The notes beneath the pieces were generated by a model. That model was given only the letters and a program-made list of their open reading frames with translations, made no database searches and was not told the DNA's origin. 64,000 nt of DNA from Squalus acanthias (lineage: Eukaryota), in contig JASTWF010000338.1 of the NCBI GenBank assembly GCA_030390025.1, positions 372,001 to 436,000 of the forward strand, read 5' to 3'. Position 1 is the stretch's first letter. Each line of letters starts with the position of its first letter. A program made the position numbers and the translations under genes. Shown in pieces: positions 4,301 to 57,164 of the stretch.

Positions 4301-4531
4301 AGTATTTACTGTGGCCATGTTTGATTTAAACCGTTGTTTTCTCTGACTGCAACTTTTGTTTTTCTCCTTCCTATCTTTTGCTTTTATCCTTGTTTCCCTT
4401 TCCTCTGTCTCCCTGCTCAGGTTCCCAACCCCCTGCCATTTTAGTTTAAACCCTCCCCCAGAGCACTAGCAAACACTCCCCCTAGGACATCGGTCCCGGC
4501 TCTGCCCAGGTGCAGACCGTCAGGTGCAGGT
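1371..4531 (-). mobile_element. CR1-clade LINE, 5'-truncated: end of ORF1 plus ORF2 (APE endonuclease + RT), inserted in the ZNF 3' UTR
   Basis: ORF 1922..4318 has LNARSI, ITETWL, GDFN, SDH, GVPQGSVLGP and FADD, then a frameshift near 1920. ORF1 tail DGLH...GEGLN* (SGNH-like) at ~4443-4520. 3' tail near 1371. Confidence 0.92.
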
Positions 4532-24736: not shown

Positions 24737-25124
24737 CTGCAGGGCTTAGATTCTGCTGTTTTTGCTGCTGTTAATCTCATCCAGGACTGAATCATGCTCA
24801 TTCTGACAGTTGGAGTTTGTTTCTGCTGATGTTAATCACTCCTCTAACTGGGCTGGAGTTTAATATTTTGATATCTGTCAAACAGATTAACTTTGTTTCT
24901 AACACACCGTGGGTCGAATCCTTGATTTCTCCAAGATAAGAGGAGACTAATTGATGTCCTGTTAATGACTGCTCCATTTTTGGACCTTTTCTCTTTTCTA
25001 ACTCAAGATTATTTCAGTTCTCACACCTTTAGTTACTCTCGTGCTCAAGCCCCAGCTCCCCAAACCTTCCAGAGTGCCTCTCCTAGCCTTGCTATCAAGC
25101 AAAGGTATTGGTAACATGTCCGTG

Positions 25125-28100: not shown

Positions 28101-29492
28101 CTGTACCTGCCCTGGGAGTATTGGATGGGACCGTGTAGAGGGACCTTTACTCTGTTTCTAACCCGTGCTGCACCTGCCCTGGGAGTGTTTGATGGGACAG
28201 TGTAGAGGGAGCTTTACTCTGTATCTAACCCTTGCATGTCCCTGCCCTGTGAGTGTTTGATAGGACAGTGTAGAGGGAGCTTGACTCGAACTAACCACTG
28301 CAGTTCCTGCCCTGGGAATGTTTGATGGGACAGTGTACAGGGAGCTTTACTCTGTATCTAACCCGTGCTGTACCTGCCCTGAGAGTGTTTGATGGGACAG
28401 TGTAGAAGGAGCCTTACTCTGTATCTAACGCGTGCTGTACCTGCCCTGTGAGTGTTTGATGGGACAGTGTACAGGGAGCTTCACTGTGTATCTAACCTGT
28501 GCTGTACCTGCCTGGGTGTGTTTGATGGGACAGTGTCGAGGGAGCTTTACTCTGTATCTAACCCGTGCTGTACCTAAGAACATAAGAACATACAGAGTAT
28601 AGCTCCCTCTGCACTGTCCCATCAAACACTCCCAGGGCAGGTACAGTACGGGGTTAGACACAGAGTAAAGCTCCCTGTACACTGGGAGTGTTTGTTGGGA
28701 CAGTGTAGAGGGAGCTTTACTCTGTATCTAACCCGTGCTGTACCTGCCCTGGGAGTGTTTGATGGGACAGTGTAGAGGGAGCTATACTCTGTATGTAACC
28801 TGTGCTGTACCTGCCCTGGGAGTGTTTGATGGGATAGTGTAGAGGGAGCTTTACTCTGTATGTAACCTGTGCTGTACCTACCCTGGGAGTGTTTGATGGG
28901 ACAGTGTCGAGGGAGCTTTACTCTGTATCTAACCCGTGCTGTACCTGCCCTGGGAGTGTTTGATGGGACAGTGTAGAGGGAGCTTTACTCTGTATCTAAC
29001 CCATGCTGTACCTGCCCTGGGAGTGTTTGATGGGACAGTGTAGAGGGAGCTTTACTCTGTATCTCACCCATGCTGTACCTGCCCTGGGAGTGTTTGATGG
29101 GACAGTGTAGAGGGAGCTTTACTCTGTATCTAACCCGTGCTGTACCTACCCTGGGAGTGTTTGATGGGACAGTGTAGAGGGAGCTTTACTCTGTATCTAA
29201 CCCGTGCTGTGCCTACCCTGGGAGTGTTTGATGGGACAGTGTAGAGGGAGCTTTACTCAGTATCTAACCCGTGCTGTTCCTGCCCTGGGAGTGTTGGATC
29301 GGACAGTGCAGAGGGAGCTTTACTCTGTATCTAACCCGTGCTGTCCCTGCCCTGGGAGTGTTTGGTGGGACAGTGTAGAGGGAGCTTCACTCTGTATCTA
29401 ACCCGTGCTGTGCCTTCCCTGGGAGTGTTTTATGGGACAGTGTAGAGGGAGCTTTACTCAGTATCTAACCCGTGCTGTACCTGTCCTGGGAC
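25125..29492. repeat. 67-bp satellite, ~65 copies, with a small internal inversion
   Basis: Unit gggacagtgtagagggagctttactctgtatctaacccgtgctgtacctgccctgggagtgtttgat. A single remnant unit lies at ~10825-10890. Confidence 0.95.
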
Positions 29493-31581: not shown

Positions 31582-32703
31582 TCACTTGTGAACTCGCTGG
31601 TGTCTCAGCAGGTTGGAAGACCGATTGAATTCCTTCCCACACTCAGAGCAGGTGAACGGCCTCTCCCCAGTGTGAACTTGCTGGTGTCTCAGCAGGGTGG
31701 ATGACTCAGTGAATCCCTTCCCACACTCAGTGCAGGTGAATGGCCTCTCTCCAGTGTGAACTTGCTGGTGTCTCAGCAGGTTGGAAGACCGAGTGAATCC
31801 CTTCCCACATTCAGAGCAGGTGAACGGCCTCTCCCCAGTGTGAACTTGCTGGTGTCTCAGCAGGGTGGATGACTCAGTGAATCCCTTCCCACACTCAGTG
31901 CAGGTGAACGTCCTCTCTCCAGTGTGAACTTGCTGGTGTCTCAGCAGGTTGGAAGACTGAGTGAATCCCTTCCAACATTCAGAGCAGGTGAACGGCCTTT
32001 CCCCAGTGTGAACTTGATGGTGTCTCAGCAGGGTGGATGACTCAGTGAATCCCTTCCCACACTCAGTGCAGGTGAACGGCCTCTCCCCAGTGTGAACTTG
32101 CTGGTGTCTCAGCAGGTTGGAAGACCGAGTGAATCCCTTCCCACATTCAGAGCAGGTGAACGGCCTCTCCCCGGTGTGAACTCGCTGGTGTGTCAGCAGG
32201 TGGGATGACTGAGTGAATCCCTTCCCACACTCAAAGCAGGTGAACGGCCTCTCCCCAGTGTGAGTTCGCTGGTGCACAGTGAGGTCAAATGATCCCCTGA
32301 ACCCAGTCCCGCAGTGAGAGCACCTGAACGGTTTCTCGTCAGTATGAACAAGTTGATGGCATGTCAGTTCCCCGGAACATTTAAAGCACTTCCCGCAGTC
32401 CGGGCATTTAAAAGGTTTTTCGTCAGTGTGAACTCGCTGGTGCTGCAGCAGGTGGGATGAATTAGTGAATCCCTTCCCACATTCAGAGCAGGTGAACGGT
32501 CTCTCCCCGGTGTGAACTCGTCGATGAGTTTCCAGCTCACACGGGTAGTTGAAACGCTTCCCACAGTCCCCACATTTACACGGTTTCTCCCCGGTGTGAC
32601 TGCGCTTGTGACTCGACAGGCCAGAGGATCGGCTGAAGCCTCGTCCACACACAGAACACGTGTACGGTTTCTCCCTGCTCTGAACGGTGCTTTCTGCTTC
32701 CAT
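31582..32703 (-). CDS. C2H2 zinc-finger protein, 13 fingers (373 aa from MEAEST)
   Basis: Uninterrupted ORF, acceptor at 32798-32800 (minus), ATG at 32703. Paralogue of the 15105 gene. Confidence 0.9.
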
Positions 32704-33274
32704 GCTCAAAGATCCTGATGAATCGAGTGACTCTGTCAGATATTGAAGTAATGTTTGGTTTGTGTTTCCTGTCTGCAAATCCTCCCCTTCTAATACCCTG
32801 TAAAATGAATTTAAAACAGGAAAAAGGGAGGGTGAGAGAGAACCCACAAAAACACAAAAGCAGGTTGTGAAATTGAGCTCAATGAATCTGGGAATTTGTG
32901 GAGCCGGCACTAGAAAAAAGTGACCATGAAAGCTGCCGGATTGTCGTAAAAACCCAACTGGTTCACTAATGTCCTTCAGGGAAGGGAACCTGCCACCCGG
33001 TCTGGGCCTACACAAGACTCTGGCCTCTATGGGAGGAGAGAGAGCGAGGTGGGAGTGGGAGGGGTGAAGGAGTTACTTTATATATCTGCAACTCGACTGG
33101 AACTTTGACAGCACCTCCCAAACACGCGACCTCCACCACCTAGAAGGACAAGGGCAGCAGGTGCATGGGAACACCATCACCTCCCAGTCACACACTATCC
33201 TGACTTGGGCATATATCGCCGTTCCTACATCGTCGCTGGGTGAAAATCCTGGAACTCTTCACCTAACAGCATTC

Positions 33275-34665: not shown

Positions 34666-36021
34666 GACATATAGAGTGGATAAAGGGGAACCAGTGGACG
34701 TAGTGTATTTAGACTTCCAAAAGGCATTTGACAAGGTGCCACACAAAAGATTATTGCTTAAGTTAAAAAATGGATAGAGGATTGGCTATCTAACAGAAAG
34801 CAACGAGTTGGGATAAATGGTTCATTCTCAGACTGGCAATCAGTAACTAGTGGTGTTCCACAGGGGTCAGTGCTGGGTCCCCAACTCTTTACAATCTATA
34901 TTAACGATTTGGAGGAAGGGACCAAGTGTAACATATCAAAATTTGCAGATGATACTAAGATGGGAGGGAAAGTAGTGAGTGAGGAGGACATAAAAAACCT
35001 GCAAGGGGACATAGACAGGCTAAGTAAGTGGGCAGAGATTTGGCAGATGGAATACAACACTGGAAAGTGTGAGGTGATGCACTTTGGCAGGAAAAATCCT
35101 AGAGCAATTTATTATCTTAATGGCAAGAAACTGGAGAGTACTGAAGTGCAAAGGGATCTGGGGGTCCTGGTGCACGAAACTCAAAAGGTTAGTATGCAGG
35201 TGCAGCAAGTGATTAAGAAGGCAAATGGAATGTTGGCTTTCATTGCTAGGGGGATAGAATGTAAAAATAGGGAGGTATTGCTTCAGTTGTACAAGGTATT
35301 GGTGAGACCGCACCTGGAATACTGCATACAGTTTTGGTGTCCTTACTTAAGGAAAGACATCCTTGCTCTCGAGGCAGTGCAAAAAAGGTTCACACGGTTA
35401 ATCCCGGGGATGAGGGGGTGGTCATATGAGGAGACGTTGGGTAGATTGGGACTCTACTCATTGGAGTTCAGAAGAATGAGAGGCGATCTTATTGAAACAT
35501 ATAAGATTGTGAAGGGGTTGGATCGGGTGGATGCGGGGAGGATGTTCCCGATGACGCGTGAGACTAGAACTAGGGGACATAGTCTTAGAATAAGGGGCTG
35601 CTCTTTCAAAACTGAGATGAGGAGGAACTACTTCACTCAGAGGGTGGTAGGTCCATGGAATATGCTGCCACAAAAAGCTGTAGAAGCTACATCATTAAAT
35701 AAATTTAAAACAGAAATAGACAGTTTCCTAGAAGTAAAGGGCATTAAGGGTTACGGGGAGCGGGCAGGAATTTGGACATGAGTCTAGGTTCGGATTGGTC
35801 ATGGCCCTGTGGGTAGTGGAGCGGGCCCAGGGACCGTGTAGCCTGATTCTGCTCCTATTTCGTGTGTGCAATTCTGTTAGATGCAGGAGATGGTTCTGTG
35901 ATAGTAGATAGTAGATTGGCGGTTAGGATCAGATCAGCCATGATCTTATTGAATGGCGGAGCAGGCTCGAGGGGCCGATTGGCCTACTCCTGCTCCTATT
36001 TCTTATGTTCTTATGTTCTTA
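34666..36021 (+). mobile_element. CR1 LINE 3' portion, close relative of the 7738-10825 family
   Basis: ORF 34870..35781 (FADD...WT); (ttcttatg)n tail. Confidence 0.9.
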
Positions 36022-40365: not shown

Positions 40366-40732
40366 CTGTGAGGCTGTGATTGAAGGTTCAGTGCACAGGG
40401 GCGGGGGGCGGGTCCTGGGGTTAGGAATCTTTCACCCGCCAACATTGACATCATTGGGTGATTGCCCACGGGGTTTAAATCTCTGGCAGGTTTGTGTTTC
40501 AACAGCACTTCCTCATTGGAACTGAGTGCAAACCCGCAGCCCAGCAATGTGTTCAGCACAGAATGATCCCACACAAATCTATTCCCCATTAACACTGTCC
40601 ATATTAATTCACCAGAAACAGCCCAGTGCCCGCAAGAAACGGCAGCCCCGCATCTGACATCAGTTAAACATACAATTCAAAATATTGTAAAGAGAAAATA
40701 AACAACATTATAGTTCAACAGAGTCTATTAAT

Positions 40733-42175
40733 TGTAGAATTCGCAATTATCGCGATTTCATTTTAATAAGGAGAAAACACAAGTTTCATTCAAAACAGCT
40801 TTTATTTCAGCGGAATGCTGTCAGGTTTAAATTGGACACAAGCAGCCTGTAAAATGGCCGCCGCACCGCGTGACAGAACATTCGAGACTTTTTCAGCAGA
40901 CAGACAAGATGGCGTTCCAATAAACATTTTTGCAGGATCGATAACGATTCAGCACAGTGAAGACGTTACACAGGACATTATGGGTTTACAGTATAAACAT
41001 CGATACTGGAATCGGTCTCCCAGGTACAAAGGAAAGCCATCAAGGGCCCATCCAAAGGACATTAATATGTAAACTCCCAACGGCTCTACGATGAGAGAGC
41101 CGTTAGCAGGTAGTTATACAGGACATTTGGAAGCCCCAAACCCCTCCAGGGGGAACACCGACCGATTTAACAATGGGAGACGTATTAGCAGGTACTCAAA
41201 CATTCAGGAGTAGCCCCGAAACCCATTAAAGACAGAGATCACCCATACAGGACTTTTTGGGCGCCAAACCTTAAACAAAAGAATGGACATTATAGTTGGG
41301 CGGGAAACGGAAGAACTGTGCACTATAATTGCAGGCCCAAACCGTCCATTCGCTCTCTTGCTCTCTTGCTCTTGACTCTTGGTTCTTGCTCCTGCCTCGT
41401 GTTCGTGACTCTTGCCGCTTGCCGCTGTTATCATCGTGGCTGCTCCTGGGTAAAAGACTGTTGCAAAGACCTATGTTGGTAGCTGGCAGCGGAACCGAAG
41501 GCCCGGGATGAGATGAGATGAGATGAGATGAGAGGAGAAGAGAAGAAGACCTTATCCATCGCCACGAGGTCTTCACTACAGCGGACGGTCCAGCCGACTG
41601 ACCGAGCAGCAGAAGCAGTAAACAAGTGGGACCAGGAGATCTCCTGACCAACACGTGGGTGCTGCGGTGGAAAACATCCGATCAGCTATTCGGGATTTCT
41701 CCGAGTTATTACGAGTGGTGAGCATGAGTCTCGGGATCCTACGAAGCTAGTTTTAGGATAGTTATTGATAGGGGAGGGTTTTAAAGTAAGGATATTTGTA
41801 ATGTGTGCCCTATTTACGTTGTGCTGGTCGTTCCTCGTTTCCCTAAGAGTGATTATAACTGTTTGTAAGATTGTACTGTCATTAATCTGTGCATATGACA
41901 TGTATTTCATAATTTTAAGTATCATGCAATAAAGATTTTCCATTTCGTACCGTTCAAACCAAGTCTACATGAGTTTTATCTCCATTTCTGCTCTCGCATC
42001 TAAGTCCAGTGTCTAGAACCGTAAGGGAGAGTGATTCGAACCACTCACAGGGGTGTCTAGTGTTCCCAGACTGGCTGGAGACCAGGCCTAGACCCGCACT
42101 GACATACAGGCTGCACAGAGCCGCGTGAATCTCACAGGCTACGAGACACGCAGGGTCAGGAGAGTATCCCTTACA
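40733..42175 (+). repeat. 5' LTR (1443 bp)
   Basis: TGTAGAAT...CCCTTACA; YY1-like motifs ~40851 and ~40905, TATAAT 41324, AATAAA 41928. Confidence 0.95.
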
Positions 42176-42179
42176 GAAA

Positions 42180-43991
42180 ATGGCGCCCGCGGCAGGACGC
42201 TGGCAGCGAGAGGGTAGTGTGTTAGATTTTGGAATGACTGTACGAAATGTGATGCAGGAAAAGATAGCGGATTACGTATTTGGAAAGGTTAATCTAACGA
42301 AAAGGTGGATAAGCGAACTGTTAGCGGATAAGAGTCCACTAGAGGCAGCTGAAAGATGGACGGATAGTAAGGAGCATAAAAAGGCAGTTGAGAAAGCAGT
42401 CTGGCTTATGTGCTACAAAAGGCAGGTCCAGATTTCTAACCAGACCAATACAGCGCTAACCGCTCGAATCAAGCAGTTAGAGGAGGAAATGGAGGAGAAG
42501 GTTTCTGGAGGGGAGGTGCTCATTAAGAGTTTAAATGAGTTACGCCAGGAAAGCCAGGAAGTCTCCAGCTACCTTAAAACAAGGGTAGAGTATCTCGAGT
42601 GCCAGATCACTGAAGCAAAATTAAACGAGAATAGGATGAAGGACAGATGTAACCGTCAAGCTGCCCAGATAAGAACTCAAGAAGAGAGCTTAATGGGGGT
42701 TAGGTCGGCGTATAAGTTGGCCCTTGAGGATAAGTTTCAGGGAGCCGACCATAGCGCCTGCGAAAAAGAGATAGAGAGCCTCAAAAGGGCCGTGAATAAT
42801 GCGAACGGCATGGTGTGCCTTATTAATCCGTCGGCACGCCAGCCGCTAGTAAATGAGAGATTTAGAAATTCCCCACCAAGTAAAGCAGAAGAAGTAGTAG
42901 CCACTGCGCCCTCCGCGCCACCCAGCTATTCAGAAACCTGGGTTAGGGAGGAAGCAACGGAAGAAGCGAAAGAGCCCGTTGAAAAAGAGGTAGAAAAGGG
43001 ATCGTTGTATCCAGTAACGGGGATTAAAAGGGGCCCAAGCAGAAACGGTGGGGAAGAACCGGGGGATCTCCTCGGACAGCTGGTGTTGCCTCACAGTTCA
43101 CACCAGCTGAGGGCCATGATAAACCACGTAAGGAAGCTGACCGAGATAGACGACCCTTCCGTACATTTTAGGGAAGTTGAGCAAGCCGCAGCCATCAACG
43201 GCTGCGATGATGGGGAGACAGCAAAAATGCTGCTGTTCTCTTTAGATAGCTCGGTCCTTCAGTGTCTCTCAGGCGATAGCAAGAGGGGTAATAAAAGTTA
43301 TGAGGAATTGAAAAATGAGGTCCTAGAAGTAGTGGGAGCGAACGACGGAGGTCCGTTTGCTAGAGTGGGACAGACAGTGCAGATGGAGGGAGAACCCCCG
43401 AAGGTTTTTGCCGACAGGCTGTGGCCAGTATATGAGCGCAGCTGTCTAGGTGCGCCCGAGCGCGAAGATGTGGAAGGCGCCGCTTTAATTCATTGGCTTA
43501 GGTGCATAATAGCCAACAGTTTACCAGCCGTTAGAGAGCAGGCAAAAGCCTGGTTCGATCCCAATGACCTCAACCTTACGGAAGAGTCGGTCTTGAATCG
43601 ACTCACGTTAGGTTACCGTAACATAAGGGGTATGGCAACACGTCCCTTTAAGGGAAGAGTACATGAGGTACGACCCGCAGCCCCGACTCAAAGAGAGTGG
43701 CATCAGGAGGGTAATCGCGCCCCACCGGCAAGCAATGCCTGTTACGGGTGTGGGAAGACAGGGCACTGGCGCAAGCACTGCAGGAACCCTTGGAAGGATT
43801 CCAAGGATAAGAATCCCGCGGTCCGAGCCCAGGCGCCTGTCCCGGCTAAGGAAGCAAAGGTACCCACCTCTCCCGAAGACCTCGAAGCAGTGTTAGGAGT
43901 CATGCGCAAGATGGTTTTAAATGCGCGTGGACAGGTGGCGGTCGCAACCGGCCCCGTAGGTGCCGCAGGACCGTCTAATAGTGCCCCATGA
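42180..43991 (+). CDS. gag: Gag polyprotein (coiled coil, late domain, capsid-like region, CCHC knuckle)
   Basis: 603-aa ORF; PSAPPSY at 42909-42929; CYGCGKTGHWRKHC at 43740-43781. The true start could be ATG 42180 or a downstream ATG (~42234). Confidence 0.9.
   Translation: MAPAAGRWQREGSVLDFGMTVRNVMQEKIADYVFGKVNLTKRWISELLADKSPLEAAERWTDSKEHKKAVEKAVWLMCYKRQVQISNQTNTALTARIKQLEEEMEEKVSGGEVLIKSLNELRQESQEVSSYLKTRVEYLECQITEAKLNENRMKDRCNRQAAQIRTQEESLMGVRSAYKLALEDKFQGADHSACEKEIESLKRAVNNANGMVCLINPSARQPLVNERFRNSPPSKAEEVVATAPSAPPSYSETWVREEATEEAKEPVEKEVEKGSLYPVTGIKRGPSRNGGEEPGDLLGQLVLPHSSHQLRAMINHVRKLTEIDDPSVHFREVEQAAAINGCDDGETAKMLLFSLDSSVLQCLSGDSKRGNKSYEELKNEVLEVVGANDGGPFARVGQTVQMEGEPPKVFADRLWPVYERSCLGAPEREDVEGAALIHWLRCIIANSLPAVREQAKAWFDPNDLNLTEESVLNRLTLGYRNIRGMATRPFKGRVHEVRPAAPTQREWHQEGNRAPPASNACYGCGKTGHWRKHCRNPWKDSKDKNPAVRAQAPVPAKEAKVPTSPEDLEAVLGVMRKMVLNARGQVAVATGPVGAAGPSNSAP
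42181..42198 (+). promoter_or_regulatory. Primer-binding site
   Basis: TGGCGCCCGCGGCAGGAC, 5 nt after the 5' LTR; TGG is complementary to the tRNA CCA end. Confidence 0.7.
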
Positions 43992-46900
43992 CTAGAACCA
44001 GCACAGCCCGTCTACCTGTGTCCGCTCAGCTATGATGCGTGGAGGCGACCTGTGGTGGAGATGGAGGTAGAGAAACAAAAGGGCAGTTATCTGTTGGACA
44101 CGGGAGCTTCTTGCACCATAATCCATACAGATGACCCTTTTGACTCGCCGCTATCTACCAAGGTCCCATTCACGCTAGCAGGGTTCACAGGGAAAGAACA
44201 GGCTGGCACGTTTTCCCTCCCGCTATCCATTCGTTTAGGAACACTTCGCTTTAAGTGGAAGTGTATACTGATGGCATGGCAAAAGGGGGGTGGAAGAGGT
44301 ATTCTCGGGTCCGATCTGCTAGCGGGACACGGGATCCTCGTGGACCTCAGAAATCACTGTCTCTGGGGGGCTAAAGGGGAAAAAGGCGAGGTAATGGTGA
44401 TTCAAGGGGAGGAAGAAACAGGGGTCCTGTGTACCGTACAGCCATCCGGAGGCTATGACCTCAGGCTTATGGTCGCAGATGTCCCAACGGACATGCAGAC
44501 GTACGTGACAGATAATATGCACGCGTTTGCAACCCACAAGCACGATTGTGGGAGGGTGGTCGGGTTTGAGGTCAGCGTAGATGGGGACCCCATGACCCGA
44601 CCCCAAAAGCAGTATAACTTCCCCAAAGAAGCAGAACCCGATATGGAGGCAGCAATGTCTTCCTTGGTGCAGCAGGGCGTGTTGAGGCCGATAGCCACAC
44701 ACGTGAACTCCCCATTATGGCCGGTTAGGAAGCCGGATAATTCGTGGAGAGCCACGGTGGACTACAGAGTCCTTAACAGTAACATCCCCGCCTGCGCGCC
44801 CACAGTAGCAGCAGTTGCTGACCTAATAGGGAGCATCCCAGCGTCCGCGACCACGTTCACGGTGCTGGATATCTCGAACGGTTTTTGGTCCATCCCGCTG
44901 CGGCGAGAGGACCAGTACAAGTTTGCCTTTACGTTTAAAGGGCAACAGTACACGTGGAACTGCTTGCCACAAGGTTTCCACAATAGCCCCAGTATTTTTC
45001 ACCAGTGTATGGCAGGGAGTTTAAAGGAGTTTAGTCAGCCCAATCAGATAGTACAGTATGTGGATGATTTGCTCCTATTTACGGACTCAAGGGAGGAGCA
45101 CGGACCACTGCTGGACGAGTTATTGGAGCTGTTAGCGAGAAAGGGTTTTAAAGTAAACCCAAAGAAAGCACGTATCGGTCAGCAGGAAGTAAAATTCCTG
45201 GGACTGACCCTACGCGCTGGGGAAAGAGCCATAGACAAAGCAAGGAGGGAGTCGGTGCAAGAATTACCGATTCCCAACAACGTAAGGGGTGTGAGGTCCT
45301 TCTTGGGACTGACCGGTTACTGCAGGGATTTTATCGAGGATTATGCGGCCACAGCGGCGCCGCTCCTCCGACTCCTCCATAAGGGAGTAGAGTGGCTTTG
45401 GGACGAGGGCTGCCAAGCAGCCTTCGAGAAGTTAAAAAGGGATCTGCAGACCGCGCCAGCCTTAGGGGCCATAGATGGGGGGAAGGAGTTTTTCCTGGAG
45501 GTAGCTGCCAGCGGAGACAGCTTAAGCGCCGTGCTGCTCCAAGAGCGTCACGGCAAGCTGAGGCCGGTTGTCTATTCATCCAGGGTATTAACGGATGTGG
45601 AGAGAAGTTTTTCCAATTGCGAAAGGCACCTTTTAGCCACGCATTGGGCTGTGAAAAGATCAGCGATCTTCACAGGGCTCTCTCCCATCACTCTCCTCAC
45701 ACATCACACACCAACTAAGATGCTTCTGGATGGGAGGATTAAAGACGGGACCGTAAGCAGCGCACGCATTGCGCGTTGGACCCTTCTTCTCTCCCAGTTG
45801 GACATCAGAGTAAAAGGTCTTTGCGAGCCCAGGCTTGCGGCCAATTTGGTATACCCCGGTACAGCCCACCGGTGTTCGGTGGAGGGGGTGTGGGACGTCA
45901 ACATAGGTTTACGGGCCGGGATACATCCCACTGGGCGCGAGATTTATGTTGATGGGTCTAGCACAGTATCTGCTGGCGAGCGACTCACAGGGTGTGGAGT
46001 TTATGACCCTGCGGCAGACCTTGCCCTGGCGATCAAGCTCCCTAGCACCATGAGCGCGCAGCAGGCTGAGCTGTCTGCCGTGGTGTACGTGGTAACCCAC
46101 CCAGACATTTTCCCAACCCCATACACGATTTGCTCGGACAGTATGTTCACCTGCAATTCGTGTACGGAATACCTGGCCATTTGGTCCCGCCGTGGATACA
46201 CCTCCGCGGACGGGCGACCTTTAACGGTAAAGCCCTTGCTGGAAAAGATCTTAGCAGCAGCAGTAGGGGAGGAAGGGGAGATTTTCATCCATAAGGTGAA
46301 AGCTCACTCCTCCACAGAGCCCCGTGGGGAGGGCAACCGGCAGGCGGATGCGCTAGCCAGGGAGGGTGCCCGCGACGGTACTTTCTGGAACCCCTATAGA
46401 ACCGGACCCATAGCAGCGGTCCGAGGTGGGGACGGGAATACCGGGAACACCAGGGTAGCATTGCCCCTAGACCTTAAGACCGTCCAAGCCCAGGATCCCG
46501 CCCTAAAAGCAGTCCTAAAAACGATTGCTGAGGGGAGGCAGGTAGAAGGTCCGTACAGTACGGCAACCCTCTCAGTTAAGGAAGGCATGCTGTTCCGCGA
46601 GGAGCAGTGGGTTGTGCCGCAGCAGCACAGGAGGGAATTCCTCCAGTTGGCTCACGAGGGACCAGGGGCAGGGCACCCCGGGCCCGAGGTTACCTGGCAA
46701 CGGGTAGAGCAAGCGGGATGGTGGCCAGGGCTCAGGGAACAAGTCCGCGAGTTCTGTGCAAACTGTCTTGTGTGCGCTGCAAACAACCCAGACCCCCAGA
46801 AAAGGAAGGTGCCCATGGGACACGTAAGAAGGGTAGAGGGACCATGGCAGTCGATACAGATCGACTATATAGGACCCCTGCCCACCACCCAGGGAGGTTA

Positions 46901-48494
46901 TAAGTACTGCCTCGTCCTGGTGGATGTGTTTTCCAAGTGGGTGGAAGCCTTCCCTTGTCGAACAGCTACGGCACTGGGTACAGCAAAAATCTTGGTCCGG
47001 GAAGTGTTCTCGCGGTGGGGACTCCCCCGTTTTGTGGAGTCAGACCAAGGGAGTCATTTCACCGGCCAGGTGATGCAGAACACCCTCATGCTTTTGGGCA
47101 TTGAAGGGAAGTGGCACGTAGCACACAATCCCCAGTCATCCGGGATTGTTGAACGTATGAACCGGACCCTGAAGGAGAAATTGAGGAAAGAGACTAGGAA
47201 CTCGCCCCAAAAATGGGCGGAAGTTCTGCCTTTAGTCCTCATGGGGGTCCGGGCCAGTCAGTCAAAAAGTACGGGGTACTCCCCGCACGAGGTAATGACC
47301 GGCAGGCTCATGCGAACCCCCACCCATGTGCTAGCCCCGGTGCTCACTGAGGGTCAGCTTCAAGAGATCAGCAGGGACAAGTTCGCCCAAACTCTCTTGG
47401 AGCGCCTGAAGCAAGTTTATGAGCAGGCGGCTGGGAACATGGGAAGGCAGCACCAGGGCAATCGCTTGTTGCTGGAACCCCGCAAAACGCGGGAGTGGGA
47501 AGTAGGAGACCAGGTCATGGTCAGAAACTACGCCAGAGTAGGGAGTCTGGAACCACTGTATATGGGACCCTACAACATTGTAGACAAGGCAAGTCCCATG
47601 GTTTACGCCGTAAAAGTACCTCGGCGCACTAAGTGGTTCCACATAAACCAATGTAAACTGTACCAGCCGGGTGCGCAAGGGAAAACTACAGGGGTAAATC
47701 CCGCCAACGGGAAAACACAGCCCCAGGTAGGACCACAAGGCACACAGGCAGGCGTAGCAGCTTGCATCAGGGGAAGGGACATCCCGGACGATCATGCAGC
47801 GTTTTTCTGGAGTTGGGGGTTAGATGACGAGGACCCCAGGGTACCCTGGTCAGATGAGGATAGTGCAGATGAGCATAGTGATGATGACGGGTGGTTTCAC
47901 AGGAACGGTCTGGAAGGATTGGGGCCGCTAGGTAGAGATCCATACGGGGTGGACACACAAGCTGCAGGTCCCGACAGCAGGAGGAAGGAGCTAGAGGAGG
48001 CCGGGCCAGCCGCTATGTGGTTCCCAGAGGTGTGGCCGCCCGCTGTAAACGTCCAGTCCTCAGGGGAGGCAGAGTTCGCGAGTGAAGGGCCGCCTGCTGG
48101 GCCGAGCAGGGCGGGGCCCCGAACTGCCAGCCCCGAGGTTAGGGAGGCGGAGTCAGCGGAGGCGGGGCTGGCGCCTGTGATGGAACCCCAGGTCATCCCG
48201 TTGAAGGTCTCGGGACCCGGTCCGTCCGTCACGGAGCCCCCGCCCATAGCAGTTCCCCGTAGGTCAAGCAGAGCACCCCAGCCCAGGAAGACGTGGTCAG
48301 GTCCACAGGATGCCCCAGGGCGTAAGTTTCAGATTAAGATAACCCGGGTAGAGACAGGCCACATCGAAGCAGTAACAGGCTGCGGCAGATCAGAGGAAAG
48401 GGTCAGCGCAGCAACAGGCTGCGGCAGATCAGAAGGAAGGGTCAGTGCCCTCCCACCGTCGGGAAGAGCTCGCAGCAGCCTTCTCAGGATTTAA
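43992..48494 (+). CDS. pol: Pol (protease, RT, degenerate RNase H/tether, RNase H, integrase, long C-terminal tail), in frame with gag
   Basis: LLDTGAS (~44097); LPQGFHNSP and YVDD (45057); IYVDGSS..AQQAEL..SDS..GNRQAD; HHCC; IDYIGP / SDQGSHF / GIVERMN; GPY. Confidence 0.95.
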   Translation, partial: LEPAQPVYLCPLSYDAWRRPVVEMEVEKQKGSYLLDTGASCTIIHTDDPFDSPLSTKVPFTLAGFTGKEQAGTFSLPLSIRLGTLRFKWKCILMAWQKGGGRGILGSDLLAGHGILVDLRNHCLWGAKGEKGEVMVIQGEEETGVLCTVQPSGGYDLRLMVADVPTDMQTYVTDNMHAFATHKHDCGRVVGFEVSVDGDPMTRPQKQYNFPKEAEPDMEAAMSSLVQQGVLRPIATHVNSPLWPVRKPDNSWRATVDYRVLNSNIPACAPTVAAVADLIGSIPASATTFTVLDISNGFWSIPLRREDQYKFAFTFKGQQYTWNCLPQGFHNSPSIFHQCMAGSLKEFSQPNQIVQYVDDLLLFTDSREEHGPLLDELLELLARKGFKVNPKKARIGQQEVKFLGLTLRAGERAIDKARRESVQELPIPNNVRGVRSFLGLTGYCRDFIEDYAATAAPLLRLLHKGVEWLWDEGCQAAFEKLKRDLQTAPALGAIDGGKEFFLEVAASGDSLSAVLLQERHGKLRPVVYSSRVLTDVERSFSNCERHLLATHWAVKRSAIFTGLSPITLLTHHTPTKMLLDGRIKDGTVSSARIARWTLLLSQLDIRVKGLCEPRLAANLVYPGTAHRCSVEGVWDVNIGLRAGIHPTGREIYVDGSSTVSAGERLTGCGVYDPAADLALAIKLPSTMSAQQAELSAVVYVVTHPDIFPTPYTICSDSMFTCNSCTEYLAIWSRRGYTSADGRPLTVKPLLEKILAAAVGEEGEIFIHKVKAHSSTEPRGEGNRQADALAREGARDGTFWNPYRTGPIAAVRGGDGNTGNTRVALPLDLKTVQAQDPALKAVLKTIAEGRQVEGPYSTATLSVKEGMLFREEQWVVPQQHRREFLQLAHEGPGAGHPGPEVTWQRVEQAGWWPGLREQVREFCANCLVCAANNPDPQKRKVPMGHVRRVEGPWQSIQIDYIGPLPTTQGGYKYCLVLVDVFSKWVEAFPCRTATALGTAKILVREVFSRWGLPRFVESDQGSHFTGQVMQNTLMLLGIEGKWHVAHNPQSSGIVERMNRTLKEKLRKETRNSPQKWAEVLPLVLMGVRASQSKSTGYSPHEVMTGRLMRTPTHVLAPVLTEGQLQEISRDKFAQTLLERLKQVYEQAAGNMGRQHQGNRLLLEPRKTREWEVGDQVMVRNYARVGSLEPLYMGPYNIVDKASPMVYAVKVPRRTKWFHINQCKLYQPGAQGKTTGVNPANGKTQPQVGPQGTQAGVAACIRGRDIPDDHAAFFWSWGLDDEDPRVPWSDEDSADEHSDDDGWFHRNGLEGLGPLGRDPYGVDTQAAGPDSRRKELEEAGPAAMWFPEVWPPAVNVQSSGEAEFASEGPPAGPSRAGPRTASPEVREAESAEAGLAPVMEPQVIPLKVSGPGPSVTEPPPIAVPRRSSRAPQPRKTWSGPQDAPGRKFQIKITRVETGHIEAVTGCGRSEERVSAATGCGRSEGRVSALPPSGRARSSLLRI

Positions 48495-48777
48495 AGGGGC
48501 CGCCCTGAGAACGGGCGGCATTGTAAAGTTATTAGTTTAAGGTTTTAAGTTTTAGTTTAAAGTTTTAAGTAGTTTTAATAAGTTTAAGTTTGTAGTGGTT
48601 TTAACAGATAACGACAAATGATGGGAGTTTTAAGGCCAGGTTTAGAGGAAGTCTGTTCAGCAAAAGTTGAAGTTTACGTGAGGCGAGGTCAGGGGACCCG
48701 CTCACCCTTCACAAAAGCCAGAGACTTTTTGCGAGGCTGGCTACCTCATTCTATCTGATCACAGGAACCAAGGAAGG

Positions 48778-51128
48778 ATGGAACGACTCATAGTATTGCT
48801 CGTGGCAATCGGATGTGGATTGGCCTATCGGGGCCTCACCAAGGATGTCGTGGTGTTTGGATGTTCCGGGGACACGGCCCCCATCGCGGTGGATGGGACC
48901 GGGAGACGGAAGGCAGAAGGGACCAGCACCTATTTCCACAAGGGAAGGTGGCCAGGATGGCTGGGAACGAACTCAACGGAGTATTCCAGCACATCGGGGT
49001 TCGCCTACAAAGAGACTTCTTTAATGTGCCCCAAAGTACGGATCATCGCACCCAGGATCAGCGTCACCGTCGGCAAACGGATTTGTTTGACTTGCAGTGG
49101 GAATGTCCCATTGAGCCGATGGTGGTGGCTGCGAAAGCTGAGCAAAACTATGAGGAACTCTTCGGTTGAGTGGGAGCGACTGGGTAATAATACCCATCGG
49201 ACAATTACGGGGACAGATGGACAAGTGAAAGTCTGTTGGGACAAATGGTGGGAACCAGATGAGGGGATTTATGTTTGTATGTGGGGGTCAAAGTACGTTT
49301 GCCCCAAAGGCATCTCCATATTCTTTATTAACCAGTGGCAGGATAACGGACAGGGGATGAGGTGGGATGCGAGCACCAGGGGGTGCGGAGCCCCATTCTC
49401 CCCGATCCCAGTAAATGCCACTGAGCTCATTACGCGCCCACGCAAAGCCCCGCCCACGATTCCGGTAGTTCTAACTGAGGAAGAAGGGTGCCCTAAAACT
49501 AGTAAGGGACCCGGGAACGGTTTGGTACTGGTCCCCACAGACCAGATACTATTTCAGGGGTGCATTACGCGGTGGCCTCGGTGATTTTAAATCTCACTGA
49601 GGTACGGTTACCAGAGTGGTGCCCCAAAAAGACGGAACAGTTGTACCAGGTCCTGTTGACCAAGATGTTCAGGCAGTTTTACGAGTTCGATTTCGCGGAA
49701 ATTGATAAGACAAGTTTATACACCGCACCGCAGGAAGTTTTGGACCAAGTTGGGAGGCAAAGAAGGGGTTTGGTGAACGATGCGTTCACTGCTTTTAACA
49801 CAGGGACATCTGTGGTCAACGCTCTAGACAGTGTGGAGCTGCAGACCCAGGTTAATGGTTTAAAAACACAGTTAAAGGATATTCTCACAGATGAGAATAA
49901 AGTGGTAGGGTCGGGTCTGCACGAGGACCAAGCCATGACACTACACTTAAAAGAGATTATAGCAGAGCTGGAGAAACATGCGCGTACGGTAAATGCCCTG
50001 ATTAGGGAAGATCGGAATGCATCCGATCAAGCTGCGCAGAACGAGGTGTGCGTGCTTTACGGGGCGTGGTTACTGGGCGAGGGCCGCAGTAATTTGGAGG
50101 ATTTAAAACAAGGTTTGGTCCCGTCCTGGATAAGTAACAAACACCTGCGGGCGCTCCACCCTTTTCAGAATGCATTAAGTCCGTGCCAGCTCAGGCTAGC
50201 TTCAGAAGCTTACCCAGTCCCCGTGGACTGCGGACGTTCAAACCATACTATTATGGGAATAGTATTACGCATGCCGGTTTTGGGCAACACAGCAAAGCCC
50301 GCCCCGGTGTATCGGGTAGAGAACATTGGTGTCATTCAGGGGGGAGCCCACATTCGTTATGCAGCGGTTCCACCTTACGTCATCCGCTGGGAGCAAACGA
50401 TGACAGGTACAGATCTCTCTGGTTGTCGTGGCAGGGGAGCACACATAATACTGTGCCCCCAGCACTTGAATGCCTTTTTAACACCACAGTGCGGGTTCAG
50501 AACGGCTGGCGCCAAGTCCATGAATTGCACCATGGAGGCAATGGCACAAGATCATGTGCCTCCGCAGGTAGCATACATCGGGGGTGGAACATATTGTGTT
50601 ACCACTGCAGCGCAACACTACCAGCATGGAAACCGTAGCCGGTGTCCGGTGAGTGACAGCAGTTTCTGTTTTAAACCCAGGGCTGAAGTTCAAGTAGCAC
50701 AACAGCGAATTATCCCAATCCCTGAACCATCCACTGTTCACCTCACAGTAAAAGAGAATTTTACCGACTTGCAGCGATTTGTCGCACATTTTGGGTACCT
50801 CATTCCCCCTCTCCCTGAGCATTTAACCAAACTTCTGAAAGCCGTCGCGGTGTCACAAAAGCATTTTTATACCTTAGAACAGAAAACCGTCGAGATAGGT
50901 ACAGACATTTTGGACATAGTGGTTCCACCGTGGTGGAATCTGTTCACGAATATTGAAGTGCCCTCATGGGTCAGAATAGCCTCCCACATTTTAGTCGTCT
51001 GTCAAGTGTTTATTGTAGTATACCTTTTGTTTATACATTGTAAAAGAGACAAGCGCCTCACCAAGCATGAGAACACGGGAGAGTGGCGAGAACGTTACGT
51101 GCGCGTGCACGATGAGAGCGCAGTGTAA
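48778..51128 (+). CDS. env: Envelope glycoprotein (signal peptide, Ig-like domain, furin site, fusion subunit, TM), split by a -1 frameshift near 49557-49560
   Basis: ORFs 48778..49584 and 49560..51128 join into ~783 aa if one G is added to the GGGG run. RQRR|GL at 49755-49766, TM ~50976-51035, candidate splice acceptor AG at 48763-48764. Confidence 0.85.
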
Positions 51129-51541
51129 TGGGAAAACGGCGTCACTCCCGCTCGCCACGTGCGCCGCGGAAGTTTGTACTCATTGTAAATACGTTGGAAA
51201 CTCGACATGTTTAAGAGTTGGGATTTGTTTATTTTGGTGATGGTGTTGATTGTTTGGTTTTTTGGGTTTTGTTTTTCCTTTCCCTGAATAAAAGATAAAT
51301 ATACAGGTGATGCGTGAGGTATCGGCCTGGTTACGCCGGGAAGGAAAACAAGTGGTGTAAGTTTAAGGGCAAATGATGCCTATGGTGATATAAAATGTGA
51401 TTTTTCTTGGGAAATAAGGACGACACAGAGACCCTAGTGAAGTTAAAATTTTATGGGATTAATTTACTGGATTCGGAGTGAAATCGAGATAAGATTGCTC
51501 ACCACTGAGTTTTTGATACGATAAGCGGAGTTATTCGCATC

Positions 51542-51553
51542 AACAGGAGGGAC
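51542..51553 (+). promoter_or_regulatory. Polypurine tract
   Basis: AACAGGAGGGAC immediately before the 3' LTR. Confidence 0.7.
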
Positions 51554-52982
51554 TGTAGAATTCGCAATTATCGCGATTTCATTTTAATAAGGAGAAAACA
51601 CAAGTTTCATTCAAAACAGCTTTTATTTCAGCGGAATGCTGTCAGGTTTAAATTGGACACAAGCAGCCTGTAAAATGGCCGCCGCACCGCGTGACAGAAC
51701 ATTCGAGACTTTTTCAGCAGACAGACAAGATGGCGTTCCAATAAACATTTTTGCAGGATCGATAACGATTCAGCACAGTGAAGACGTTACACAGGACATT
51801 ATGGGTTTACAGTATAAACATCGATACTGGAATCGGTCTCCCAGGTACAAAGGAAAGCCATCAAGGGCCCATCCAAAGGACATTAATATGTAAACTCCCA
51901 ACGGCTCTACGATGAGAGAGCCGTTAGCAGGTAGTTATACAGGACATTTGGAAGCCCCAAACCCCTCCAGGGGGAACACCGACCGATTTAACAATGGGAG
52001 ACGTATTAGCAGGTACTCAAACATTCAGGAGTAGCCCCGAAACCCATTAAAGACAGAGATCACCCATACAGGACTTTTTGGGCGCCAAACCTTAAACAAA
52101 AGAATGGACATTATAGTTGGGCGGGAAACGGAAGAACTGTGCACTATAATTGCAGGCCCAAACCGTCCATTCTGTCTCTTGACTCTTGGTTCTTGCTCCT
52201 GCCTCGTGTTCGTGACTCTTGCCGCTTGCCGCTGTTATCATCGTGGCTGCTCCTGGGTAAAAGACTGTTGCAAAGACCTATGTTGGTAGCTGGCAGCGGA
52301 ACCGAAGGCCCGGGATGAGATGAGATGAGATGAGATGAGAGGAGAAGAGAAGAAGACCTTATCCATCGCCACGAGGTCTTCACTACAGCGGACGGTCCAG
52401 CCGACTGACCGAGCAGCAGAAGCAGTAAACAAGTGGGACCAGGAGATCTCCTGACCAACACGTGGGTGCTGCGGTGGAAAACATCCGATCAGCTATTCGG
52501 GATTTCTCCGAGTTATTACGAGTGGTGAGCATGAGTCTCGGGATCCTACGAAGCTAGTTTTAGGATAGTTATTGATAGGGGAGGGTTTTAAAGTAAGGAT
52601 ATTTGTAATGTGTGCCCTATTTACGTTGTGCTGGTCGTTCCTCGTTTCCCTAAGAGTGATTATAACTGTTTGTAAGATTGTACTGTCATTAATCTGTGCA
52701 TATGACATGTATTTCATAATTTTAAGTATCATGCAATAAAGATTTTCCATTTCGTACCGTTCAAACCAAGTCTACATGAGTTTTATCTCCATTTCTGCTC
52801 TCGCATCTAAGTCCAGTGTCTAGAACCGTAAGGGAGAGTGATTCGAACCACTCACAGGGGTGTCTAGTGTTCCCAGACTGGCTGGAGACCAGGCCTAGAC
52901 CCGCACTGACATACAGGCTGCACAGAGCCGCGTGAATCTCACAGGCTACGAGACACGCAGGGTCAGGAGAGTATCCCTTACA
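51554..52982 (+). repeat. 3' LTR (1429 bp)
   Basis: Matches the 5' LTR by eye except for a 14-bp length difference in a CTCTT-repeat patch. Confidence 0.95.
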
Positions 52983-52997
52983 TAATGGCCAGTGAAA

Positions 52998-55900
52998 ACC
53001 CCTCACCCCAACTCCTCTTTCACCCCTACTCACCAACTCCCCTCACCCCAACTCCTCTTTCACCCCTACTCTCCAACCCCCTCACCGCAACTCCTCTTTC
53101 ACCCCTACTCTCCAACTCCCCTCACCCCAACTCCTCTTTCACCCCTACTCTCCAACCCCCTCACCGCAACTCCTCTTTCACCCCTACTCTCCAACTCCCC
53201 TCATCCCAACTCCTCTTTCACCCCTACTCTCCAACCCCCTCACCCAAACTCCTCTTTCACCCTAACTCTCCAACCCCCCTCACCCCAACACCTCTTTCAC
53301 CCCTACTCTCCAACCCCCCTCACCCCAACTCCTCTTTCACCCCTACTCTCCAATCCCCCTCACCCCAACTCCTCTTTCACCCCTACTCTCCAAACCCCTC
53401 ACCCCAACTCCTCTTTCACCCCTATTCTCCAGCTCCCCTCACCCCAACTCCTCTTTCACACCTACTCTCCAACCCCCCTCACCCCAACTGCTCTTTCACC
53501 CCTACTCTCCAAACCCCTCACCCCAACTTCTCTTTCACCCCTACTCTCCAACCCCCCTCACCCCAACTCCTCTTTCACCCCTACTCTCCAACCCCCCTCA
53601 CCCCAACTCCTCTTTCACCACTACTCTCCAACCCCCCTCACCCCAACTCCTCTTTCACCCCTACTCTCCAACCCCCCTCACCCCAACTCCTCTTTCACCC
53701 CTACTCTCCAACCCCCCTCACCCCAACTCCTCTTTCACCCCTACTCTCCAACCCCCCTCACCACAACTCCTCTTTCACCCCGACTCTCCAAACCTCCTCA
53801 CCCCAACTCCTCTTTCACCCCTACCCTCCAAAACCCCTCACCCCAACTCCTCTTTCACCCCTACTCTCCAACCCCCCTCACCACAACTCCTCTTTCACCC
53901 CGATTCTCCAAACCTCCTCACCCCAACTCCTCTTTCACCCCTACCCTCCAAACCCCTCACCCCAACTCCTCTTTCACCCCTACTCTCCAACCCCCCTCAC
54001 CCCAACTCCTCTTTCACCCCTACTCTCCAGCTCCCCTCACCCCAACTCCTCTTTCACCCCTACTCTCCACACCCCTCACCCCAACTCCTCTTTCACCCCT
54101 ACTCTCCAACCCCCCTCACCCCGACTCCTCTTTCACCCCAACTCTCCAACACCCCTCACCCCAACTCCTCTTTCACCCCTACTCTCCAACCCCCCTCACC
54201 CCAACTCCTCTTTCACCCCTACTCTCCAACCCCCCTCACCCCAACTCCTCTTTCACCCCAACTCTCCAACCCCCCTCACCCCAACTCCTCTTTCACCCCT
54301 ACTCTCCAACCTCCCTCACCCCAACTCCTCTTTCACCCCTACTCTCCAACCCCCCTCACCCCAACTCCTCTTTCACCCCTACTCCCAACCCCCCTCACCC
54401 CAACTCCTCTTTCACCCCTACTCTCCAACTCCCCTCACCCCAACTCCTCTTTCACCCCTACTCTCCAACTCCCCTCACCCCAACTCCTCTTTCACCCCTA
54501 CTCTCCAACCCCCCACACCCCAACTCCTCTTTCACCCCTACTCTCCAACCCCCCTCACCCCAACTCCTCTTTCACCCCTACTCTCCAACTCCCCTCACCC
54601 CAACTCCTCTTTCACCCCTACTCTCCAACTCCCCTCACCCCAACTCCTCTTTCACCCCTACTCTCCAACCCCCCTCACCCCAACTCCTCTTTCACCCCTA
54701 CTCTCCAACCCCTCACCCCAACTCCTCTTTCACCCCTACTCTCCAACCCCCTCACCGCTACTCCTCTTTCACCCCTACTCTCCAACTCCCCTCATCCCAA
54801 CTCCTCTTTCATGCCTACTCTCCAACCCCCTCACCGCTACTCCTCTTTCACCCCTACTCTCCAACTCCCCTCATCCCAACTCCTCTTTCACCCCTACTCT
54901 CCAACCCCCTCACCCAAACTCCTCTTTCACCCTAACTCTCCAACCCCCCTCACCCCATCTCCTCTTTCACCCCTACTCTCCAACCCCCCTCAACTCAACT
55001 CCTCTTTAACCCCTACTCTCCAACCCCCCTCACCCCAACTCCTCTTTCACCCCTACTCTCCAACCCCCTCACCCCAACTCCTCTTTCACCCCTACTCTCC
55101 AACCCCGCTCACCCCAACTCCTCTTTAACCCCTACTCTCCAACCCCCCTCACCCCAACTCCTCTTTCACCCCTACTCTCCAACCCCCTCACCCCAACTCC
55201 TCTTTCACCCCTACTCTCCAACCCCCCTCACCCCAACTCCTCTTTCACCCCTATTCTCCAGCTCCCCTCACCCCAACTCCTCTTTCACACCTACTCTCCA
55301 ACCCCCCTCACCCCAACTGCTCTTTCACCCCTACTCTCCAAACCCCCTCACCCCAACTCCTCTTTCACCCCTACTCTCCAACCCCCCTCACCCCAACTCC
55401 TCTTTCACCCCTACTCTCCAACCCCCCTCACCCCAACTCCTCTTTCACCCCTACTCTCCAACCCCCCTCACCCCAACTCCTCTTTCACCCCTACTCTCCA
55501 ACCCCCCTCACCCCAACTCCTCTTTCACCCTTACTCTCCAACCCCCTCACCCCAACTCCTCTTTCACCCCTACTCTCCAAACCCCTCACCCCAACTCCTC
55601 TTTCACCCCTACTCTCCAACCCCCCTCACCACAACTCCTCTTTCACCCCTACTCCCCAACCCCCCTCACCCCAACTCCTCTTTCACCCCTACTCTCCAAC
55701 CCCCCTCACCCCAACTCCTCTTTCACCCCTACTCTCCAACCTCCCTCACCCCAACTCCTCTTTCACCCCAACTCGCCAACCAACCTCACCCCAACTCCTC
55801 TTTCACCCCTGCTCCCAACCCCCTCACCCCAACTCCTCTTTCACCCCTACTCTCCAACTCCCCTCACCCCAACTCCTCTTTCACCCCTACTCTCCAACCC

Positions 55901-56470
55901 CCCTCACCCCAACTCCTCTTTCACCCCTAGTCTCCAACCCCCCTCACCCCAACTCCTCTTTCACCCCTACTCTCCAACCCCCCTCACCCCAACTCCTCTT
56001 TCACCCTACTCTCCAACCCCCCTCATCCCAACTCCTCTTTCACCCCTACTCTCCAACCCCCCTCATCCCAACTCCTCTTTCACCCCTACTCTCCAACCCC
56101 TCTCACCCCAACTCCTCTTTCACCCCTACCCTCCAACCCCTCTCACCCCAACTCCTCTTTCACCCCTACTCTCCAAACCCCTCACCCCAACTCCTCTTTC
56201 ACCCCTACCCTCCAACCCCTCTCACCCCAACTCCTCTTTCACCCCTACTCTCCAAACCCCCTCACCCCAACTCCTCTTTCACCCCTACTCTCCAACCCCC
56301 AACTCCTCTTTCACCCCTACTCTCCAACCCCCCTTCACGCAAACTCCTCTTTCACCCCTACTCTCCAACCCCCAACTCCTCTTTCACCCCTACTCTCCAA
56401 CTCCTCTTTCCCACTACTCTCCAACCCCCCTCACCCCAACTCCTCTTTCACCCCTACTCTCCAACCCCCT
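52998..56470. repeat. ~40-bp C-rich satellite, ~85 copies
   Basis: Unit ccccctcaccccaactcctctttcacccctactctccaac; almost no G on the + strand. Confidence 0.95.
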
Positions 56471-57164
56471 TTCATCTTCCATTGATATTTGGAACCTGTC
56501 AGAATTTGAAAGATATTTACAAATGATTTGATTGTTTCTTAGAGTTGGGATCTTTTTTCATTCTGTTGCCTTCTGATTGAAATGAAACCGACGGTTTTAC
56601 CAGTCGGGATTTGAAAGGTATTTGTAACAGATTGTAGATGTTCTTCGATCGGGATCTTTCTCTATTCCATCCACTCGAGCAGTTGGATAACAGACTTTCT
56701 CCTGTGAATATAGAGCTGGAGTATTGGGTCGTGATGTGTTCACTTGTTCATCTTCTTGACTCTAAAAATTGAGTCTTGTGGTTTCAGACACCAGATAATC
56801 AAGCTCACAACAACAGATTGTCTTTTACTGACTTTATTAACAGCATTGGAATAATACAGACAGAGTATAGTTACCTGTCCGGAGACAGGGATAATACAGT
56901 GGATTCAGAGCTCTCTTCTCCCCAGGTCTGTTATAACAAGCTGCGGCTACACTGACGAGAGTTATACTGAACTTGTTTACTGCATTCGTGATCTGGCCCT
57001 GCTCAAAGCTGAGATATCTGTGCATTGTTCTGACTGTCACCACAAGGCTGTGTCACTATCACACAGACAACGTTTCCATGTTTCACATCTCCATCCACAG
57101 ACCATCTCTTTACACATCCCCTTCCATCCTCAATCAACATCAGCAAAATAGATTATCTGCTCAA

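Follow-up and report, generated by a model that had tools for sequence, protein, structure and literature searches.

Introduction

The mode of pol expression serves as a taxonomic marker for retroviruses, and the textbook form of retroviral readthrough combines a UAG stop codon with a pseudoknot. In the present work, we examined the gag–pol junction of an endogenous retrovirus (ERV) that lies within a 64,000-nucleotide stretch of Squalus acanthias DNA (GenBank assembly GCA_030390025.1, contig JASTWF010000338.1, positions 372,001 to 436,000, forward strand; hereafter the window, whose numbering is used throughout), and in which gag ends at a UGA codon followed by CUAG. Retroviruses are already known to read through a stop between gag and pol, and UGA codons have been reported there before. 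Specifically, the accessible parts of a 2026 review (PMC13517186) give gag–pol UGA codons for SSSV (salmon swim bladder sarcoma virus; UGAAGA), zebrafish ERV (ZFERV; UGACGA) and a cane-toad ERV (UGAAGU), with suppression described as inferred in each case and the epsilonretroviruses as lacking an experimental test. XtERV-S likewise has an in-frame TGA, here followed by CAG, for which suppression was also inferred (PMC8278194).

With respect to stop-codon context, the same review defines type II readthrough by UGACGG or UGACUA, names UGACUA for Chikungunya virus (CHIKV) and Sindbis virus (SINV), along with Plautia stali intestine virus (PSIV), and in its accessible parts lists it only for alphaviruses and a dicistrovirus; readthrough at UGACUAG in human genes is given a floor of about 1.3% (PMC13517186). 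In alphaviruses, 3′ stem-loops boost readthrough 3- to 14-fold (PMC3159437). As for the retroviruses of related hosts, shark ERVs have been reported to cluster with snakehead retrovirus (SnRV), as clade Huo or CmiERV lineage I (PMC4422223, PMC6001957), and the accessible part of the lokiretrovirus survey of Wang and Han (2021; PMC7947760) lists no cartilaginous host.

Our analysis favors programmed UGA readthrough, at a UGA-CUA site of the alphavirus type, at the gag–pol junction of a young endogenous retrovirus, a reading to which we assign a probability of roughly 0.87. A sequence-only reading of the window had suggested that Pol is expressed by UGA suppression, and every comparative test that was run, covering the position of the gag end, the copies of the element, the protease upstream of the first ATG, the reading frames and the context in lokiretroviruses and an ERV-S relative, favors that suggestion.

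Results

The gag–pol junction

The sequence-only reading had placed the gag stop at a TGA followed by CTA G, in a frame that stays open into pol to give a product of about 2,100 residues. Both points, as well as the peptide quoted for the junction, were confirmed when the sequence was reread, and the features involved are as follows.

42252–43991, plus strand: gag, with a charged N-terminal region, a capsid-like region and one CCHC knuckle (about 43740–43781)
43989–43995, plus strand: gag stop TGA and CTAG, a type II UGA-CUA readthrough context
43992–48494, plus strand: pol, with protease (DTG at 44097), reverse transcriptase (RT; YVDD), tether, RNase H, integrase and a low-complexity C-terminal tail

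Specifically, the heptamer TGACTAG occupies 43989–43995, with the stop codon itself at 43989–43991. The two stop-to-stop frames on either side, 42129–43991 (620 codons, Gag) and 43992–48494 (1,500 codons, pol), share one reading frame, and no second stop occurs in its 2,100 codons. The predicted Gag-Pol fusion is 2,080–2,104 residues long depending on the start codon; alignment to homologues points to a gag start at 42252, the frame being open from 42129. Within 43500–44500, the TGA at 43989 is the sole stop in the gag–pol frame, with 17 and 16 stops in the other two. The stop lies 3′ of the CCHC knuckle, as in gamma-, epsilon- and snakehead-type loci, and 35 codons separate it from the protease DTG (27–40 in viral loci with an intact junction).

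In terms of readthrough class, UGA is followed directly by CUA, one of the two type II triplets (CUA or CGG), and immediately beyond it lies a conserved coding frame of 1,500 open codons in which protease homology precedes the first ATG. The gammaretroviral type III signature, UAG-G, is absent, as the codon is UGA and the next base is C. The TGACTAG heptamer as such is not enriched in the window (4 matches against 10.0 expected), and the remaining three matches, at 2388, 15861 and 61936, are at chance level. Among the 5,425 stop triplets on both strands of the window, however, only 4 stand in TGACTAG and 22 in either type II context (TGA-CTA or TGA-CGG), a rarity that renders chance presence at the single gag stop unlikely. 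The earlier description of UGA-CUA as the leaky-stop motif of alphaviruses agrees with the accessible parts of PMC13517186, with the addition that UGA codons at retroviral gag–pol junctions are already published.

Conservation of the stop codon

A Gag search of 1.84 billion representatives returned 29 matches. Two of these are near full length (45% and 37% identity) and end within one residue of the stop described here, and two further members of the second Gag cluster end at the identical residue. The stretch also occurs in sequencing runs (20 of 24 listed) under eight organism codes, and copies were compared across 43500–44500 using contigs from 4 of the 20 runs, representing four coded organisms (854, 95, 11 and 294 contigs), with 40 of the 105 variants considered. 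The copies vary extensively, and in 22 of the 40 listed cases the encoded residue stays the same. None of the 40 falls at 43989–43995, and variants are listed nearby at 43987 and 44003. Among these same changes, the present copy differs from nearly all contigs at 43726, 43733, 43811, 43919 and 44456; since such private differences are listed, a private nonsense change should have appeared as well. One diverged contig, which differs at 18 of 87 letters, matches from 43988 onward and is unlike the element upstream, which suggests that the junction may outlast the Gag tail. The common variant at 43987 leaves a last gag codon (43986–43988) ending in AA; in yeast, adenines at −1 and −2 are reported to favor readthrough (PMC3159437).

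Protease upstream of the first ATG

The first ATG of the pol frame (44061) corresponds to residue 24, inside the second strand of the protease and 12 residues before the catalytic Asp, and the Pfam RVP match starts at residue 17. The segment preceding this ATG aligns with the protease N-termini of a coelacanth protein (P0006, XP_064407972.1), of P0013 and of locus L001 (10,688 nt, UAG GGC junction), which we infer to be snakehead retrovirus; in none of the three does ATG 44061 have a counterpart at that place. In a structure model of the protease, beta-strands are predicted at residues 6–11 and 20–26 with a predicted local distance difference test score (pLDDT) of about 71–76. Judging from these alignments, the 23 codons before the first ATG are conserved protease. 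A leaky stop would also account for Pols truncated at an internal Met by automatic annotation, and many homologues begin a few residues before the DTG.

Predicted RNA structure downstream of the stop

Minimum free energy (MFE) folding placed two stem-loops 3′ of the junction.

43998–44058, plus strand: predicted extended stem-loop (MFE), a candidate 3′ stimulator that starts at +10 from the first base of UGA
44066–44149, plus strand: second predicted stem-loop (MFE), over the protease active-site codons

A 162-nt stretch containing both stems has a z-score of −3.78, and a 160-nt window containing both has −3.5, ranking 6 of 77 across gag–pol, where the median is −1.2. The listed variant at 44003 preserves its stem pair as G-U. 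The known site of Moloney murine leukemia virus (MoMLV) type scored +0.8 by the same measure, which shows the folding test to be blunt in both directions, and the folding tools used predict no pseudoknots. The junction stem-loop is a plausible lead rather than a result.

Proposed mechanism

In the favored reading, most ribosomes would stop at UGA and release a Gag of about 580–600 residues. The near-cognate tRNAs at UGA are those for Trp, Cys or Arg, and a minority of ribosomes, probably a few percent, would insert an amino acid from such a tRNA, with the CUAG context weakening termination. The readthrough product would be a Gag-Pol of about 2,090 residues that is packaged and cleaved. As the least certain step, the stem-loop from +10 may raise the level of readthrough, as in alphaviruses.

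Several observations weigh against programmed readthrough. The Gag relatives at 37–45% identity are known as proteins, which show where Gag ends rather than the stop codon and its context. A minority CGA form may exist among the copies, some T>C changes lying outside the 40 of 105 variants considered. A loose end (2 contigs, agreement 0.8) points to a diverged copy with G at 43994, and hence CUG for CUA. As to conservation of TGACTAG, the position of the gag end is shared with the Gags at 37–45% identity, and no change within the heptamer is among the 40 variants considered, alongside this hint of CUG. The protease model is of low confidence overall (mean pLDDT 57.7), and its Foldseek matches to retropepsins are weak (best E 0.08). 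With respect to RNA structure, the first hairpin alone (80-nt window) has a z-score of −1.9 and ranks 28 of 157 gag–pol windows, and five 160-nt windows elsewhere score better than the one at the junction; the expected downstream structure can form from +10, but it is not statistically outstanding.

Alternative explanations

The TGA could be a nonsense mutation of this copy or sub-lineage, the functional element having a single open Gag-Pol frame. CpG decay of CGA would be the commonest route to such a change, and the Loki-Pfl consensus does carry CGA-CTA at this position; moreover, in 8 further lokiretrovirus consensus sequences gag–pol is annotated as a single open reading frame (ORF), the present copy carries a break in env, and the annotation of coelacanth P0006 shows no stop between its Gag-like part and the protease, although this may be a gene-model artefact. 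Against such a mutation stand Gags at 37–45% identity ending at the same place, the lack of any stop variant among the listed changes when private differences elsewhere are listed, and a young copy (2 mismatches between its long terminal repeats (LTRs)) that has no further stop in 2,100 codons. Nor was any of 7,995 candidates a longer protein reaching across the junction, a weak indication in the same direction. Overall, we consider a nonsense mutation very unlikely.

Production of Pol apart from Gag, in the manner of foamy viruses, would rely either on a pol mRNA formed by splicing or on ribosomes that (re)initiate at an ATG within the frame, and is likewise unlikely, if somewhat less so. The AG of CTAG could act as a splice acceptor, with CTAAT 17–21 nt upstream, and this basal lineage lies at no great distance from class III and foamy-like groups; the Candida Tca2 element has reportedly been studied on the question of separate Pol expression. 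Nonetheless, the pyrimidine share before this AG is 0.54, as compared with 0.67 at the env acceptor, and ATG 44061, the first available, sits within the second protease strand, is absent at that place from P0006, P0013 and L001, and is preceded by conserved protease sequence. Finally, the stop could be bypassed if ribosomes shifted away from the gag frame and then returned to it, for which a TTTAAAT heptamer at 43916 might serve. As pol lies in the gag frame, two shifts would be needed, and stops block both remaining frames, one at 43918, 43957 and 43993 and the other at 43976, 43979 and 44033, which leaves this route barely credible.

The provirus and its relatives

The element is a full-length provirus bounded by LTRs (40733–52982), with many related copies. 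In addition to gag and pol, the following features were assigned.

40729–40732, plus strand: target-site duplication, left copy TAAT, flanking the 5′ LTR
40733–42175, plus strand: 5′ LTR, 1,443 bp, TG...CA ends, aligned to the 3′ LTR
42181–42198, plus strand: probable primer-binding site, starting TGG, after the LTR and a 5-nt spacer
48735–48764, plus strand: canonical-looking splice acceptor upstream of env, a pyrimidine-rich tract ending in CAG
48778–51128, plus strand: env, in two frames in this copy (48778–49584 and 49506–51128), with signal peptide, RQRR site and transmembrane helix
51554–52982, plus strand: 3′ LTR, 1,429 bp, with a short purine tract 5′ of it
52983–52986, plus strand: target-site duplication, right copy TAAT

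The order LTR-gag-pol-env-LTR, together with a primer-binding site, purine tract and target duplication, is that of the Retroviridae. Consistent with this assignment, Pfam identifies in the pol frame a protease, RT, two RNase H-type domains (PF17917/PF17919, the tether, and PF00075) and an integrase, and the RT groups with those of retroviruses (20-row tree, midpoint root). The LTR pair differs by 2 mismatches in 1,429 aligned columns and one 14-nt indel, and the two mismatches mark the provirus as young; a rough insertion age would be about 0.3 million years with a mammalian rate, or about 3 million with the rate that PMC4422223 assumes for sharks. Each LTR is long (1.4 kb) and contains short simple repeats, with 5 bases between LTR end and primer-binding site (42176–42198). 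ARAGORN found no tRNA gene in the window for comparison with that site, and two sub-threshold Rfam sR24 matches in the LTRs were taken as chance. The integrase tail (47670–48494), about 270 residues long, combines an acidic character with a Pro/Arg-rich composition, and a short repeat occurs inside it near 48380–48440.

The CAG of the env acceptor sits 13 nt 5′ of the env ATG, and splicing probably takes place there. The env frame is broken near 49506–49584 in this copy, whereas a skate homologue is uninterrupted across the region. Env gave no Pfam match and no useful match in a PDB sequence search, and its structure model has a pLDDT of 33. Its language-model features lie at 0.94–0.96 to the Gypsy env, Baculo_F and Fusion_gly clusters, but its recognition value of 1805 is below 2300. 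By these features Env looks F-type (paramyxovirus/errantivirus-like), although the RT is non-lokiretroviral.

In terms of relatives, all six Env matches named are from sawshark or skate, and of eight Gag representatives looked up, five are named, four of them from sharks. Among named Pols, the closest (44–45%) are 'NYNRIN-like' proteins of a coelacanth and a frog. L001 is the best viral RT match (43–46%, as compared with 34–38% for gamma- and epsilon-type loci), and its integrase identity is low (31%). RT trees were built in a careful 20-row version (midpoint root) and a quick 70-row version, from RTs other than labelled foamy, class III or ERV-L sequences. The careful tree places the element in an unresolved basal set with the coelacanth and frog Pols and L001, and a 96/94 branch splits its RT from the loki-like Pol P0033 and from gypsy-like rows; it lies outside the epsilon/gamma group, and the quick tree gives the same picture. 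Assignment to the lokiretroviruses was dropped on RT phylogeny and Pol architecture (33% RT identity to P0033, separate branch), P0033 being a single representative called loki by eye from motifs in the PMC7947760 supplement. By these comparisons the element would fall among basal, snakehead-retrovirus-like retroviruses, and would not be a gammaretrovirus or, judged by RT, a lokiretrovirus. A protease–RT (PR–RT) protein search of metagenome and viral contigs gave no relative, and alignment-based PR–RT searching recovered 15 and 80 loci, all of them distant retroviruses or gypsy-like elements.

Around the provirus, the window holds long minisatellite arrays with units of about 40 bp and 67 bp (52986–56500 and about 25000–29000), the 40-bp array directly adjoining the provirus. 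There are also two multi-finger C2H2 zinc-finger ORFs (465–1343 and 31582–33072), as well as RT ORFs of the long interspersed nuclear element type, one with an endonuclease domain, and an RT/GIY-YIG ORF that is probably Penelope-like (1922–4465, 7933–9711, 34762–35781 and 18409–20577).

Comparison with known systems

As far as the available sources go, the opal codon between nsP3 and nsP4 of the alphaviruses SINV, O'nyong-nyong virus (ONNV) and CHIKV resembles the shark junction in its UGA-CUA context (UGA CUA G in ONNV), in production of the polymerase by readthrough and in a predicted extended 3′ stem-loop. The shark junction differs in that it would set a retroviral ratio of Gag to Gag-Pol, and in being known from sequence alone. 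MoMLV (gamma) and WDSV (walleye dermal sarcoma virus; epsilon), which are of type III, are alike in having one in-frame stop after the nucleocapsid knuckle and about 30 codons before the DTG, but their signal is UAG-G, with an H-type pseudoknot 8 nt past the stop in MoMLV, and the RT of the element lies outside their group. SSSV, ZFERV, the cane-toad ERV and XtERV-S share UGA at gag–pol and aquatic hosts, and none has a CUA context in the accessible descriptions. SnRV has UAG where the shark element has UGA, and a sister relation between the two is not resolved by the RT tree. In foamy viruses, Pol has a start codon of its own and occupies a different frame from gag, and Gag is not known to carry a Cys-His box. 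By contrast, pol in the present element shares the frame of gag and offers no ATG ahead of the protease core, and Gag carries a CCHC knuckle.

Lokiretroviruses resemble the element in a tether plus RNase H, a putative F-type Env (by features) and TGA-CTA at the gag end, whereas the Pol described here lacks their long PR–RT insert and no smc gene was seen. Of the 24 consensus sequences in the PMC7947760 supplement, nine were read by eye at the gag–pol junction, and seven have TGA-CTA, a rate that is biased because the junctions were found partly by motif search. Specifically, TGA CTA G occurs in Loki-Ofa, -Cne, -Pyo and -Sau and TGA CTA A in Loki-Bsp, -Dcl and -Lro, with CGA CTA A in Loki-Pfl and TGN CTA A in Loki-Tfu. 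One lokiretrovirus sub-lineage has TGA-, CGA- or TGN-CTA at the gag end and others are annotated with one open gag–pol frame, which recalls the opal/Arg toggle of alphaviruses. In a class III frog relative of ERV-S (PMC8278194, supplement file 5), TGA CTA G likewise stands upstream of the protease region, and that copy carries a one-base shift further on.

With respect to earlier descriptions, the accessible part of PMC7947760 contains no mention of readthrough, stop codon or suppression, that of PMC13517186 no mention of lokiretroviruses, and that of PMC8278194 no comment on the TGA CTA G of the frog relative. Our literature search, mostly open-access in scope, found no paper treating lokiretroviruses together with readthrough, and no description of UGA-CUA at a retroviral gag–pol junction; its reach stopped short of bioRxiv supplements, Repbase notes and the majority of subscription papers. 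In the literature searched, neither the CUA context nor its return in distant retroviral lineages appears to have been reported.

A wider proposal, which we hold tentatively and regard as possible rather than probable, is that UGA-CUA readthrough is widespread and unrecognized at the base of the retrovirus tree, in the shark lineage, class III ERV-S relatives and the lokiretrovirus sister group, where it would alternate with CGA or with an uninterrupted frame, in the manner of alphaviruses, and may predate the gammaretroviral UAG-pseudoknot; the element itself would then be a non-loki retrovirus with an F-type envelope. The junction offers a short, directly testable cassette. Taken together, the shark UGA-CUAG and the same motif in lokiretroviruses and the ERV-S relative suggest a leaky-stop signal common to retroviruses, alphaviruses and vertebrate host genes, whether by ancestry or by repeated convergence.

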